DNA from: a virus
Lineage: Duplodnaviria > Heunggongvirae > Uroviricota > Caudoviricetes
Reading direction: 5' to 3' (one strand)
IMG/VR virus record: IMGVR_UViG_2663763000_000004
Length of the DNA: 5,955 nucleotides
Part shown: positions 2,766-5,805 of the stretch, piece after piece
Layout: the number at the start of each line of letters is the position of its first letter
Position numbering within the stretch: position 1 is the stretch's first letter
The notes under the pieces: model-generated
The model's input: only the letters and a program-made list of their open reading frames with translations
What the model was told of the DNA's origin: nothing
Databases searched by the model: none
Position numbers and translations under genes: made by a program

Positions 2766-3554
2766 TTACCCCCTGAAGCCTGGCGGGATCGCACTGTCCG
2801 GCAACGAGACAGTGTTAACCTGTCGGAGCAACGTCTCAGGCCGAACACCTTTCGGCGCGAACAGGCCCTGGTATTCATTGGCGATGCTGTGTCGAATCAC
2901 CTGCTCAGGTGTAAAACCCTGCTGACGGAATTTTTCCAGCTCCCGTATCGCCCCGTTAGCGCCCTGCTCCGTTCGAATCGGTTTTCGCAATGCCTGCCTG
3001 AACTTAACCCACTCATGCCAGAGTGTTTCCGGCAACCAGTCAGGCAGCTCGATAGCCTCCGGCTCGAATTTTTTAGACGCTCGTTTTTGGCGAGGGGGAT
3101 TTAGGGGGAGATCAGTATTTATATCTTCCTCTTCCTCTTCCTCTGGTAACGCTTTTTGATCCGTTTGTGTAACGCTGCCAGCGTTACCTTTTCGTTTCAG
3201 TTCGCGTATTTTTGTAACTCGCTCGTTTGTAACCGCCCGTTTTTTAGAGCTTTTTCCGTTATGACGTTCAAAGTTAGGTAGAGAAAGCCCACCGTCATTT
3301 TCGACCAGCCATCCAACCTGAATTAACGCATCAGCAAAACCAGCCATAAAAGTGATGCGGTCTATTGCACTTTTTGTAACGCCGCGAGCGTTACAATCTG
3401 CATTACCGTCTATCATTTGTTGATCCGCCCATGCCCAGAAGCGAATAACCTTCCCTAATGCGGCATCTGGATCAATATTCAGAATCTCAGCAAGCCTGAA
3501 TATTTCCGGCTTATCCGGCGTAATAACCTCGAGCTTTATCCAGTTTGAAGCCAT
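2766..3554 (-). CDS. phage replication initiator / replisome organiser (lambda O analogue, YdaU position)
   Basis: 262 aa; ATG at 3552-3554 with AAGGTG 7 nt upstream. Lies directly upstream of, and nearly abutting, the DnaC-like gene. The middle of the gene carries an iteron-like repeat cluster and an acidic EEEEEED linker, as lambda O carries ori. Family is assigned from position and architecture, not from recognised sequence identity. Confidence 0.7.
   Translation of the reverse strand: MASNWIKLEVITPDKPEIFRLAEILNIDPDAALGKVIRFWAWADQQMIDGNADCNARGVTKSAIDRITFMAGFADALIQVGWLVENDGGLSLPNFERHNGKSSKKRAVTNERVTKIRELKRKGNAGSVTQTDQKALPEEEEEEDINTDLPLNPPRQKRASKKFEPEAIELPDWLPETLWHEWVKFRQALRKPIRTEQGANGAIRELEKFRQQGFTPEQVIRHSIANEYQGLFAPKGVRPETLLRQVNTVSLPDSAIPPGFRG
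3145..3237. repeat. iteron-like repeat cluster inside the O-like gene (candidate replication origin)
   Basis: GTAACGC half-sites at 3146-3152 and 3169-3175, inverted GCGTTAC at 3181-3187, and variants GTAACtCGC (3214-3222) and GTAACcGCC (3229-3237); includes the 19-bp palindrome GTAACGCTG-c-CAGCGTTAC (3169-3187). Followed toward the gene 3' end by a pyrimidine-rich (CTTCCT)3 tract and an AT-rich patch (3110-3145). Confidence 0.5.
3374..3396. repeat. second copy of the GTAACGC-N5-GCGTTAC palindrome (TTGTAACGC-cgcga-GCGTTACAA)
   Basis: 9-bp perfect inverted arms inside the 5' part of the O-like gene; same core as 3169-3187 and 3566-3588. Confidence 0.5.
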
Positions 3555-3565
3555 TTGTTTTCACC

Positions 3566-3588
3566 TTGTAACGCTCGCAGCGTTACAT
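3566..3588. repeat. third copy of the GTAACGC-N5-GCGTTAC palindrome, just upstream of the O-like RBS
   Basis: TTGTAACGCt-cgc-aGCGTTACA in the 77-bp spacer between the YdaT-like stop and the O-like start, 14-30 nt upstream of the O-like ATG. No flanking T-run or A-run, so it is not a terminator. Confidence 0.5.
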
Positions 3589-3631: not shown

Positions 3632-4054
3632 TCAATGCACTACGACAGAATCGCCGGGCGACCCACCACCGCTGAAATGTGCTTTCCGGTAAACGGCCTG
3701 GACTGCATCATCATGCGCATCAATTGCCGTACTCAACGCTTCCTGCGCCGCCAGTAATGCACGGCGTTCCAGGGTATCGAAGATGCAGAGTCGGTGACGC
3801 AGCTCGCGCGGAAGAATTGCCAGAACCGCAGGGATCAGTTTCTGAATTTTTTCCCTTTGCGCTTTCGTTTCACCTTTCAACCAACGGTGATAGATATTCT
3901 GCTGATTGTTCCAGTCCTTGCCTGGTACAAGGGGCAATTCGCCGCCCCCCTGGCGCAGATATTCTTCAGTAATTGCGTTAGCGACCCACGCCTGCCCTTT
4001 TTCGGCTGCCAGGGCTAACAACACTGATTCGATGTGCTCATGCCTGATTTTCAT
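3632..4054 (-). CDS. ydaT: YdaT-family protein (CII-like regulator / putative toxin of the Rac ydaS-ydaT module)
   Basis: 140 aa; ATG at 4052-4054 overlaps the Cro-like stop as ATGA. The sequence MKIRHEHIESVLLALAAEKGQAWVANAITEEYLRQGGGELPL... matches my recollection of E. coli K-12 Rac YdaT (also 140 aa) very closely. It occupies the cII position between cro and the replication genes. Confidence 0.7.
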   Translation of the reverse strand: MKIRHEHIESVLLALAAEKGQAWVANAITEEYLRQGGGELPLVPGKDWNNQQNIYHRWLKGETKAQREKIQKLIPAVLAILPRELRHRLCIFDTLERRALLAAQEALSTAIDAHDDAVQAVYRKAHFSGGGSPGDSVVVH

Positions 4055-4293
4055 GAATCAACCGCTCCTATGCTGTTTTCGCTATGCTTACCGTCTGGGG
4101 GGAATACATCGTCAAGTCCACAATGAGCGCCAAGCCGATTAAGGGTAGAAACAATTTTTCTGCACTCCTCTAGTCCAGGGGTACGAAAATTTGCTTCGTA
4201 ATTTGCCAGTCGGCTTTGTATCCACCCTAACTGAACAGCAAGTTGTCTTTGAGACAGCCCAAGCTGTTTTCGATATGTTGAAATTTTGTTCAT
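4051..4293 (-). CDS. Cro-like HTH-XRE transcriptional regulator (80 aa)
   Basis: ATG at 4291-4293 with GGAGG (reverse complement of 4301-4305) 6 nt upstream. N-terminal HTH QLGLSQRQLAVQLGWIQSRLANYE of the Cro/C1 (XRE) type. First gene of the minus-strand operon, divergent from the repressor. Confidence 0.8.
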   Translation of the reverse strand: MNKISTYRKQLGLSQRQLAVQLGWIQSRLANYEANFRTPGLEECRKIVSTLNRLGAHCGLDDVFPPDGKHSENSIGAVDS

Positions 4294-4389
4294 TGAAAAC
4301 CTCCGATGACAATTTTAAACACACCTTGTGTTATATGGTCAATCTGTTTTGTGTTTTATGTAAATCACGATTCGTGATACAAGGATGCA
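4294..4389. promoter_or_regulatory. divergent immunity control region (PR-like / PRM-like promoters with operator candidates)
   Basis: 96-bp AT-rich spacer between the divergent HTH genes. Contains a 15-bp inverted repeat AACACAcctTGTGTT (4318-4332), a 15-bp perfect palindrome ATCACGAtTCGTGAT (4364-4378) just upstream of the repressor SD, and direct repeats TTGTGTTaTATG (4326-4337) and TTGTGTTtTATG (4349-4360). On the minus strand, a TTGACC, 17 nt, TTTAAA/TAAAAT arrangement could be the promoter for the Cro-like gene. Confidence 0.6.
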
Positions 4390-4809
4390 ATGGAAAAAGA
4401 AAACGAAAAAATTGCCGCTAGTAGGCTCAATGACAAAATTGCAATGCGTCTTAAAGAGCGCAGGCAGAAGCTTGGTTTATCTCAAGGAAAACTTGCTGAA
4501 ATCTGCGGATGGACGCAATCGCGTATAGGTAACTATGAGGCGGGCAGCAGAAATGTTGGAGTGCATGACGCTGTCGTATTGGGAAAGGCACTTGGCATAT
4601 CTCCTCCTGAGCTCCTATTTGGAGAACAGGAATCTTCTGAATTGTGGTTAAATGAATCCCAACGAAAACTTCTTGAGTTGTTTAACCAGCTACCTGGCTC
4701 AGAACAACAACGAATGATTGAGCTATTTGAAGTCCGGCTAAAAGAAATCGATGAGTATGTAGAAAAATATTTGAGAGGCAGGCTTAAAGATAATCCCCCA
4801 CCGGAGTAA
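4390..4809 (+). CDS. DicA-like prophage repressor (N-terminal HTH-XRE, C-terminal dimerisation region, no S24 peptidase domain)
   Basis: 139 aa; ATG at 4390 with AAGGA 4-5 nt upstream. HTH KLGLSQGKLAEICGWTQSRIGNYE; the C-terminal SQRKLLELFNQLPGSEQQRMIELFEVRLK resembles the DicA C-terminus (SPKELELLELFNALPESEQ...) as I recall it. Divergent from the Cro-like gene. Confidence 0.8.
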   Translation: MEKENEKIAASRLNDKIAMRLKERRQKLGLSQGKLAEICGWTQSRIGNYEAGSRNVGVHDAVVLGKALGISPPELLFGEQESSELWLNESQRKLLELFNQLPGSEQQRMIELFEVRLKEIDEYVEKYLRGRLKDNPPPE

Positions 4810-4838
4810 TGATCTTGCTATCACAGTAATATGCCAAT

Positions 4839-4864
4839 CAGCCCGCTATCAGCGGGCTTTTTTG
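4839..4864 (+). terminator. rho-independent terminator downstream of the repressor gene
   Basis: Perfect 8-bp GC-rich stem AGCCCGCT (4840-4847) / AGCGGGCT (4851-4858) with a 3-nt loop ATC, followed by a T-run (4858-4863), 30 nt after the repressor stop. Confidence 0.8.
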
Positions 4865-4892
4865 TACCATCATCATATGACACCCACCACAA

Positions 4893-4935
4893 AACACATT
4901 TCGTGTTGACATAAGAAAACGCATTGTGTTTAATA
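4893..4935 (+). promoter_or_regulatory. PL/OL-like promoter with overlapping operator-like palindromes, driving the downstream accessory gene
   Basis: -35 TTGACA (4906-4911), 17-bp spacer, -10 TTTAAT (4929-4934) with TG at 4927-4928. The inverted repeat AACACatttcGTGTT (4893-4907) overlaps the -35, and an imperfect repeat AAACGCattGTGTTT (4917-4931) overlaps the spacer and -10. The motif AACAC-N5-GTGTT is the same as at 4318-4332. Confidence 0.55.
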
Positions 4936-5103
4936 AGCATATCCAAACAACGCCCCACCAGAGAACGGCTGGACAATACCTCGAGTTATCCAGCCACTGA
5001 ACAGGGCTAAGTAGCCAGCCTGAGGCATACGAACATGACGGCAGTTGTTGATTGATACAAAGCGCAGTAGATAAAACGTTCCGCCACCCGGCGTTAAGGG
5101 GAA

Positions 5104-5805
5104 ATGAGGTCAACANNNNNNNNNNNNNNNNNNNNNNNNNNNNNNNNNNNNNNNNNNNNNNNNNNNNNNNNNNNNNNNNNNNNNNNNNNNNNNNNCCAGG
5201 AGATTGCAGCACACACACTTCGTCATCGTCTGAACGAACTTGAATTGGAATCGGTAACGAAAAAAGACACTGATAATATGGCTCGTAATGTGCGCGATGC
5301 GTTTACCGGATTGTATTTCTGTGCGTCTATAAATAAACACGACTCAGAGAGTGTGGCAAATAAAATTGCAGAAACGACAGCGCAAAACATCAATACGAAA
5401 CCAACGGAAGAAGAAATTGATCAGTTTGCTCATGATGCTGGTTTAAAAAACAAGAAAGAAAAATCGCCATATGCGGGGAACATGTTTGTTTATGACAATC
5501 TCATCAGAATTCGTGGCGAAATTCCGGCGGAATACCTGGCAAGAGTCCATCAGGCATTGCTTAAAAATTTGGAAACAGAATTATTTGATGGCAACACTAA
5601 CGGTTTCTTCATGGTATCAGGCCTTGAGAAAGACTGGGATGCAGAAAAACGCTGGAATGTTGCTACATGGTTATTCAGTAACAGAGCCGCTGCACTGGAA
5701 GCTTCGGCATGTATTTGCGGCCTGTTCTTAACAGACCACAAATATAATCTGGATGTGTACAGTTATATTTACGCTGAACACGGTCCACTCTGGATTGACT
5801 GGTAA
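5104..5805 (+). CDS. hypothetical protein of unknown function; lower-GC accessory gene in the cI-proximal position, interrupted by an assembly gap
   Basis: ATG at 5104 with strong SD AAGGGG (5095-5100); 80 N at 5116-5195; then a continuous open frame 5196-5805 ending in TAA (5803-5805). Hand-counted GC in three 60-nt blocks (5281-5460) is roughly 35-43 percent, against roughly 50 percent in a replication-gene block (2401-2460). The gap length, and so the frame link between 5104 and 5196, cannot be trusted; an in-frame ATG at 5278 has no SD. No motif I recognise. Confidence 0.5.
   Translation: MRSTXXXXXXXXXXXXXXXXXXXXXXXXXXXQEIAAHTLRHRLNELELESVTKKDTDNMARNVRDAFTGLYFCASINKHDSESVANKIAETTAQNINTKPTEEEIDQFAHDAGLKNKKEKSPYAGNMFVYDNLIRIRGEIPAEYLARVHQALLKNLETELFDGNTNGFFMVSGLEKDWDAEKRWNVATWLFSNRAAALEASACICGLFLTDHKYNLDVYSYIYAEHGPLWIDW
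5116..5195. other. assembly gap (80 N)
   Basis: Run of exactly 80 ambiguous bases, a conventional scaffold-gap placeholder. Confidence 0.99.

Follow-up and report, generated by a model that had tools for sequence, protein, structure and literature searches.

The immunity region and its early-left promoter

The DNA analysed here (the window) is a 5,955 nt stretch of the viral record IMGVR_UViG_2663763000_000004, and covers the immunity region of an E. coli lambdoid prophage that resembles Rac and Qin. A 306 nt query taken from it (window positions 4810–5115) is 100% identical to E. coli O145 strain RM9872, which provides the parent sequence. Divergent cro-like and cI-like genes, a replication gene cluster, an early-left promoter with its operators and a long structured leader are the main features of the region (Table 1). 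In or just upstream of the YdaU-like replication gene there are also three 19-bp palindromes of the form TGTAACGC-N5-GCGTTACA (3168–3188, 3374–3396 and 3567–3587), which look like iterons, parts of an origin or regulator sites.

Table 1. Features of the immunity region and leader, in window coordinates.
Feature	Position	Strand	Details
ydaT/cII-like gene with ydaU- and ydaV-like replication genes		minus	
cro-like HTH gene	4051–4293	minus	
cI-like HTH repressor gene	4390–4809	plus	
cI intrinsic terminator	4840–4862	plus	
oL-type operator	4893–4907		AACACATTTCGTGTT; overlaps −35 hexamer
oL-type operator	4916–4930		AAAACGCATTGTGTT; overlaps spacer/−10
pL-type early-left promoter	4906–4934	plus	TTGACA-17-TTTAAT; −35 4906–4911, −10 4929–4934
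Conserved structured leader RNA, whole unit (module 1)	4943–5044	plus	covariance model R1, 90.4 bits, E = 3.6e-21
P0, tentative outer helix around P1a	4952–4955/5004–5007	plus	GCCC/GGGC
P1b, tentative outer helix around P1a	4959–4961/4997–4999	plus	CAG/CUG
P1a hairpin (hairpin 1 of the preliminary description)	4967–4973/4989–4995	plus	loop 1 4974–4988, CAAUACCUCGAGUUA
Junction and S1 5' strand	5009–5017	plus	AAGUAG; S1 5' strand G5014, C5015, C5016; then A5017
P3 hairpin	5018–5023/5037–5042	plus	loop: S1 3' strand GGC 5024–5026, then AUACGAACAU 5027–5036
AU-rich variable spacer	5045–5073	plus	least conserved stretch of the eight-sequence alignment; includes the end of the 6-codon ORF from AUG 5035
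Separate 3' module (module 2)	5074–5115	plus	small hairpin, UUAAGGGG, SD GAGG 5106–5109, first start-codon base 5115
Hairpin 3	5082–5085/5090–5093	plus	CGCC/GGCG, inside the 3' module

The early-left promoter is absent from a simple promoter scan because its −10 hexamer lacks an A at position 2. It had been placed at the same position in a preliminary description of this DNA, and is supported both by its hexamers and by the two oL-type palindromes that overlap them. The operator palindrome AACAC-N5-GTGTT is exact at the first of these sites, has one mismatch at the second and recurs at 4318–4332 in the intergenic region between the cro-like and cI-like genes; the window as a whole contains 12 matches against 2.7 expected, a number that none of 200 shuffled sequences reached. 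Operators overlapping the promoter, with a further copy between the cro-like and cI-like genes, constitute what is by its sequence organisation an oL/pL arrangement. Transcription would start at about A4941. Similarity to other prophages begins at ~4938–4941, and the promoter and operator sequences 5' of this point are unrelated.

The leader is built from two modules

A run of 80 N in the window (5116–5195) stands for 192 nt of the parent sequence (L001 6307–6498), comprising a 50-aa DUF1391/YdfA-like coding sequence whose ATG starts at window position 5115, together with the opening 29 nt of a 212-aa gene. The open reading frame that begins at ATG 5104 (5104–5805, 233 aa), taken in the preliminary description as the start of an accessory gene, is an artefact since its frame reads through the 80 N. 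That accessory gene is therefore two real genes joined by masked sequence, namely a DUF1391 (PF07151) gene followed by the 212-aa phrog_2151 gene without known function, and the parent sequence places the real first ATG at 5115. Because the first coding sequence starts there, the leader is ~174 nt long (~4941–5114). The broader proposal that a long untranslated leader with RNA-level information lies behind a pL-type promoter is supported.

The 3' ~40 nt of the leader, containing hairpin 3 and the SD, occur without the 5' element in phages phiES15 and mEp460, where the leader is only ~65 nt, and the 5' part is self-contained, which indicates that the leader consists of two modules. Module 2 is very likely the region in which translation of the masked ydfA-like gene is initiated, and module 1 is very likely a horizontally shared structured RNA; horizontal transfer is implied by the presence of the element in unrelated phage types. 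The stem of hairpin 3, whose fourth pair varies from C-G through U.G to U-A, exists as first described, but it lies at 5082–5093 rather than 5081–5094 and belongs to the separate translation-start module.

Module 1 forms a covarying fold with a predicted pseudoknot

Module 1 combines variable helices with ~35 unpaired loop and junction nucleotides that are near-invariant. All of its motifs are found in the window at 4967–5042: the P1a loop AC...GAGUUA, the junction AAGUAG, the S1 strands (GYY/GRC) and the P3 loop UA.GAA. In P1a, GGCTGGA (4967–4973) pairs with TCCAGCC (4989–4995) to give a 7-bp stem closed by a 15-nt loop, exactly where the preliminary description had drawn its first hairpin, and the comparison adds that the helix covaries while the loop, AC...GAGUUA, is almost invariant. 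AAGUAG is invariant in all 47 aligned sequences. Immediately 3' of AAGUA, GCC pairs with the GGC that opens the P3 loop, and this helix, S1, together with P3 very probably forms an H-type pseudoknot with a conserved A-rich loop, to judge from the pattern of sequence change.

That pattern was drawn from a structure alignment of 37, and then 47, distinct copies. Within P1a all six modelled pairs change on both sides, and the stems include GGCUGGA/UCCAGCC, GUCGGG/CCCGGC, CAGAG/CUCUG, ACCAGA/UCUGGU, ACUAGA/UCUAGU, GCGG/CCGC and GGAAGA/UCUUCU. P3 is likewise found as GCC/GGC, ACCUGA/UCAGGU, UCUGGU/ACCAGA, UCAACC/GGUUGA and UCAAGC/GCUUGA; in the E. coli types its canonical pairs are confined to the outer GCC/GGC. 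The S1 strands are GCC/GGC (n = 34), GCU/GGC (n = 7) or GUC/GAC (n = 6); they pair in 100% of cells, and the middle pair covaries from C-G to U-A. Taken together, 12 of the 15 pairs in the three helices change on both sides, and 74.5% of cells pair compared with 60.2 ± 0.9% after shuffling (a figure matched by 0/500 shuffles). For covariation the score is 0.337, the shuffled alignments giving 0.148 (again 0/500) and slid partners 0.142 at most, and an earlier test on a plain MAFFT alignment pointed in the same direction. RNAalifold applied to the MAFFT alignment predicted a single helix, a 3-bp GCY/GGC pairing later recognised as S1. The G.U pairs imply that the plus strand is the folding strand.

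Two outer helices around P1a, P0 and P1b, appear in the minimum free energy folds of most clades and in a four-helix model, and 74–76% of their cells pair in the model-fitted alignment; they are kept as tentative because an independent flank-shuffle test was not significant (Fisher p = 0.11). A second small hairpin of the preliminary description, given at 5003–5015, is in fact GGCT 5005–5008/AGCC 5013–5016. Its pairing is possible in 81% of cells, yet covariation is lacking, and S1 takes up the AGCC strand. The stems proposed at the outset are thus conserved in relatives to different degrees: the first covaries, the second does not, and the third belongs to the other module. Single-sequence folding does not set the leader apart (z = −0.08 for the whole leader and −1.87 for a 95-nt core), and a perfect 7-bp hairpin arises in ~9% of shuffled leaders. 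Twelve homologues give z-scores between −1.87 and +0.83, so that folding energy is unusable as evidence; the case for a structured leader is comparative, the energy alone being unremarkable.

Several further pairings and motifs were considered and dropped. Pairing of loop 1 UUCG with loop 3 YGAA is at odds with uncompensated loop 1 variants (CCUCG, CCACG, CUACG and UGCG), and pairing of loop 1 UACUU with the junction AAGUA was given up in the face of loop 1 variants that are similarly uncompensated. In by-eye comparisons, the registers or the variation did not fit a T-loop or tRNA mimic, a sarcin-ricin/loop-E motif (AGUA/GAA), an RfaH ops site (GGCGGTAG), a CRISPR-repeat mimic or complementarity to the rrn leader.

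The element is widespread behind unrelated promoters in E. coli prophages

Of 5,426 complete E. coli genomes, 3,842 match the leader, at up to seven places in a single genome, and in 3,549 the match spans 80% or more of it; the K-12 Qin prophage has no match to the element in this search. When eight prophages and phages are aligned, their promoters and operators are unrelated and similarity sets in abruptly from the inferred start site. Across 93 distinct copies, at least ten unrelated types of upstream promoter and operator are joined to the same leader. The prophages Tritos and LD67-1 have HK022-type pL operators and carry the element exactly where HK022 has putL. The pPE4 promoter (TTGACA-17-GAGCAT) also differs from that of the window, and joins a window-type leader at CATATCCAAAC. 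This last sequence, PP818812.1, is deposited as 'Actinobacillus phage vB_Apl-pPE4'; it has a Rac-like immunity region with ydaT, kil and exoVIII genes and a leader that is 99.4% identical to that of the E. coli prophage in the window, and its assignment to an Actinobacillus host looks doubtful.

The downstream side is equally variable. In prophages the element is followed by ydaG (K-12 Rac), by ydfA (CFT073, O157) or by no nearby gene, and when other phages are included what follows may also be nutL and N or the next promoter; the element is independent of the sequence downstream of it. It is absent from the related lambdoid phages mEp460 and phiES15, which are also without an obvious N. Neither the 12-kb locus nor the complete phage Tritos contains a second copy on the pR side, each giving a single match. 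In Tritos Q is present and no N is annotated.

Arsenophonus-type prophages and T7-like phages carry the same element

A scan of genome contigs with the 15-mer CAATACYTCGAGTTA returned, among the matches listed, almost only chance hits, the one real match being Arsenophonus contig L059. Viral scans with short split patterns likewise yielded mostly chance matches (two were screened by model and the third by regular expression), and a metagenome scan for the T-variant gave no new members. In the Arsenophonus-type prophages the element precedes a boxA (CGCTCTTTAACA), a boxB (UCGCUGAAAAAGCGA), a lambda-like N-leader hairpin and an N-like gene whose product has an arginine-rich N-terminus. Loci of this type with two copies of the element contain two tandem immunity modules. 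One such case is the IMG/VR contig L255 (1–5000), of the sequence type of the Arsenophonus nasoniae contig L059, in which each of the two tandem modules runs in the order cro-like gene, cI-like gene, pL, element, boxA/boxB, N-like gene.

A T7-like form is found in 404 phage records, near full length in 390. The carriers are mostly Klebsiella phages of the genus Przondovirus, together with Berlinvirus and with phages of Salmonella, Erwinia, Dickeya, Pectobacterium, Yersinia and Pantoea; Klebsiella phage K12P1.1 has a further T7-like version. In every one of these genomes the element comes after the first sigma-70 promoter, at the left end of the genome, and stops at the −35 of the next. By alignment to the T7 A1 start, which has been mapped, it begins at ~+1 to +6. 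Known anti-restriction genes lie just downstream. In phage KpV766, for instance, the annotated promoters lie at 413–439 and 547–575 and the element at 448–552. As a separate observation, T7-like phages show complementarity between the −10 region of the first promoter (AUGGCUAC or UUAGC) and the junction/S1 segment (GUAGCCAU or GCUAA; L265 ~7935–7945 with 8020–8030, and the equivalent in L273). A transcript would include the two sequences only if it started further upstream.

Aligned start sites and promoter positions across these groups make it highly probable that the element forms the first ~100 nt of the first early transcript made by host polymerase in Rac/Qin-type, N-encoding lambdoid and T7-like phages.

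Searches for known regulatory sites and RNA families

The preliminary description had noted that this position holds nut-like sites or other RNA-level control in lambdoid early-left operons, while remarking that a canonical boxA was lacking. The latter is borne out: allowing one mismatch, boxA (YGCTCTTWA) has five matches in the window against 4.8 expected by chance, and none in 4941–5115. The hairpin loops of the leader measure 15, 4 and 4 nt and include no GNRA-like pentaloop hairpin of the boxB type, and the annotations of the 12-kb locus and of the complete phage Tritos include no N-type gene. Lacking a boxA, a boxB-type loop and an N gene, the leader is not a nut site.

No Rfam 15 family was matched in 4866–5337 when the window was searched with cmscan at E ≤ 10, and at gathering thresholds the parent locus yields only DicF, further downstream. 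A weak Trp_leader match at 4779–4865 (27.5 bits, below the gathering score) coincides with the cI terminator hairpin AGCCCGCTATCAGCGGGCT and its T-run. There is no intrinsic terminator in 4941–5115, the only one nearby on the plus strand being that of cI, and no alternative terminator/antiterminator pairing was found in the leader. HK022 gave no blastn match and only a chance-level partial match to model R1 in its immunity region (7.6 bits, E = 4.7). Literature searches, including searches with exact sequences, returned no paper that contains the element sequence or discusses the leader, and the papers on dicB/Qin, Rac, put and EHEC prophage sRNAs make no mention of it. The element is an uncatalogued, structurally conserved RNA that belongs neither with the nut sites nor in the put family.

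Discussion

A proposal for its role must accommodate a strict place at the head of one strong early transcript, indifference to the downstream sequence, the ~35 near-invariant unpaired nucleotides, hosts throughout Enterobacterales and absence from some close relatives. By analogy with HK022 put, we tentatively suggest that the element may be a cis-acting modifier of early elongation or of transcript fate. Module 1 would fold while emerging from E. coli RNA polymerase and, once folded, could affect in cis either that same polymerase complex during elongation or the transcript being made, directly or via a host factor conserved across Enterobacterales. Following the logic of put, a long and initially untranslated early operon would in this way stay processive against pausing, Rho and internal terminators. 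An example of such a barrier might be the DicF terminator ~1.4 kb downstream of the leader: the DicF sRNA gene (Rfam RF00039, 75 bits) and its intrinsic terminator (parent L001 7657–7715) lie within this early-left operon, ahead of kil, recE and recT.

Consistent with an action of this kind at the start of the early operon, operators matching those at oR overlap the promoter, homology starts at the inferred start site whichever promoter type precedes it, and in T7-like phages the element keeps its place near +1 and between the annotated promoters of KpV766. A covarying three-helix structure on the plus strand, its wide distribution over E. coli genomes, T7-like phages and Arsenophonus-type prophages, and its retention whatever sequence lies downstream point the same way. 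A need for read-through is possible, given the DicF terminator inside the operon and the lack of an annotated N in Tritos, and prophages with HK022-type operators carry the element at the putL position. Against this, each immunity module has a single copy and the pR operon has none, whereas HK022 needs both putL and putR; mEp460 and phiES15 manage without the element and without an obvious N; and the Arsenophonus-type prophages have the element in addition to a full nutL and N. The transcripts from the second and third promoters of T7-like phages cover the same genes without it. Sequence similarity to putL is lacking, the folding z-scores are unremarkable and the outer helices are not significant.

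More broadly, the element could represent a new class of nascent-RNA device in lambdoid and T7-like phages, either a second, non-put type of RNA that reprograms the host RNA polymerase or blocks Rho from within the opening ~100 nt of the first early transcript, or an immediate-early decoy, ribozyme or aptamer that disarms or senses a conserved enterobacterial factor, and in this general form the proposal is doubtful.

An unlikely alternative is that the RNA works in trans, being the first and most abundant RNA made after infection or induction, and that it binds and neutralises a conserved host protein or RNA such as a defence nuclease, a toxin, Rho, Hfq or an RNase. Known decoys of this sort include RNA anti-CRISPRs and pseudo-ToxI antitoxin mimics. 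A decoy would fit the position at the very start of immediate-early transcripts, in T7-like phages just before anti-restriction genes, and its optional presence among close lambdoid relatives alongside its sharing by unrelated phage types. One copy per phage would suffice, and long invariant single-stranded segments are typical of a specific binding surface. The element nevertheless has neither a promoter nor a terminator of its own, is never found away from a transcription start, shows no evident 3' end and bears no likeness to CRISPR repeats, ToxI or another Rfam family.

Less likely again is a role in stability or processing, in which the lifetime of the early transcript would depend on a compact 5' fold that either blocks 5'-end-dependent scanning by RNase E or provides a site for RNase III. 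The 5'-proximal position is constant and an AU-rich unstructured spacer follows the element in the E. coli types, both as such a role might predict. The ydfA transcripts of K-12 Qin depend on RNase III and RNase E (PMC10448788), although K-12 Qin itself has no match to the element. A simple protective hairpin would require neither a pseudoknot nor ~35 near-invariant loop and junction nucleotides, and the 5' end of the element is single-stranded for ~10 nt in the E. coli types, while its short interrupted helices would be poor substrates for RNase III.

Covarying helices set around junctions and loops of high conservation, together with an H-type pseudoknot whose loop is A-rich, are also typical of a riboswitch aptamer or self-cleaving ribozyme, and orphan ribozymes and riboswitches are known from phage genomes. 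A new class of either kind is nonetheless improbable here, as there is no conserved expression platform (the T7-like element directly adjoins the next promoter), no alternative terminator/antiterminator pairing and no match to an Rfam aptamer or ribozyme even at E ≤ 10.

It is very improbable that the conservation reflects a small open reading frame on either strand, a DNA-level protein site or hitch-hiking instead of RNA structure. The region does have a conserved AUG at 5035, within loop 3/P3 and with a GAGG 9 nt upstream, and some phage records annotate hypothetical proteins over it on one strand or the other, but these annotations conflict in strand and frame. The frame opened by the AUG encodes 6 aa in the window (5035–5055), extends for 18 codons in K-12 Rac and becomes an in-frame extension of ydfA in CFT073-type prophages, and the AUG is absent from the T7-like copies. 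Since the length of the frame is not conserved and indels of 1, 2 and 5 nt between clades break it, a coding or uORF reading is rejected; the compensatory changes and G.U pairs are, in addition, strand-specific. In some phage records the CFT073-type ydfA extension is itself annotated, as a 78-aa 'head-DNA stabilization protein D'.

The view of the preliminary description, that the leader holds a nut-like site for an N-type antiterminator protein, is hardly tenable and already contradicted, for although the position between pL and the first gene matches that of lambda nutL and small hairpins are present, boxA occurs only at chance level, the first genes are DUF1391 and phrog_2151 rather than N, and in relatives the element coexists with a genuine boxA, boxB and N as separate units.

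Returning to the put-like action that we favour, if it is correct the element could explain how N-less Rac/Qin-type prophages transcribe through internal terminators such as that of DicF, and would be a second natural system, beside HK022 put, for RNA-mediated control of elongation. Its fixed 5' place in the first transcript of phages with two unrelated lifestyles suggests a general function in early infection exerted on a conserved host component. The distribution, if borne out, would mean that roughly two-thirds or more of complete E. coli genomes contain an unannotated RNA, often in several copies, and that the same RNA is present in hundreds of Klebsiella phages that are therapeutic candidates. 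Whatever its function, the element defines a new RNA family for annotation pipelines.

Comparison with known systems

Lambda nutL is placed as the element is, in untranslated RNA that separates pL from the first gene of the early-left operon, but nutL has a boxA, a boxB pentaloop hairpin and N downstream, none of which accompanies the element here. HK022 putL and the element are both structured RNAs encoded in cis that start a few nucleotides after the pL start, both are composed of two domains and of similar size (~70–100 nt), and neither needs a dedicated phage protein encoded nearby. The sequences are nevertheless unrelated by eye and the structures dissimilar; put consists of two stem-loops with a triplex in stem I, and the second domain of the element is a pseudoknot. 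Antitermination and anti-pausing by put need no protein and depend on the β' zinc-binding domain of RNA polymerase. HK022 has both putL and putR while the element is single-copy, and, unlike put, the element stands beside nutL and N in some phages.

Phage T7 itself retains a reduced copy. The A1 RNA from ~+35 to +92 (L393 133–190) is homologous in position, coming after the first host promoter and extending as far as the −35 of A2, and it keeps AAGUAG, a possible S1 (GAC/GUC), P3 (CCUG/CAGG) and the loop 3 sequence ACGAA. It differs in its spacings and in having a hairpin CCGG-GGUCAA-CCGG, with a 6-nt loop in place of the 15-nt loop 1, and scores only 5.6 bits with model R1. This part of the much-used A1 transcript has, to our knowledge, no assigned function, and a function for the element would provide one.

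Other small pseudoknotted RNAs borne by phages, serving as protein decoys or regulators, are ToxI with its pseudo-ToxI mimics and the leader of T4 gene 32. ToxI differs in that the element has no repeat array and no match to the Rfam ToxI family. Autoregulation of a single protein is unlikely for the element because the gene downstream of it varies; in layout the gene 32 leader resembles the E. coli-type leader, a 5' pseudoknot being followed in both by an unstructured AU-rich stretch that leads to the ribosome-binding site.
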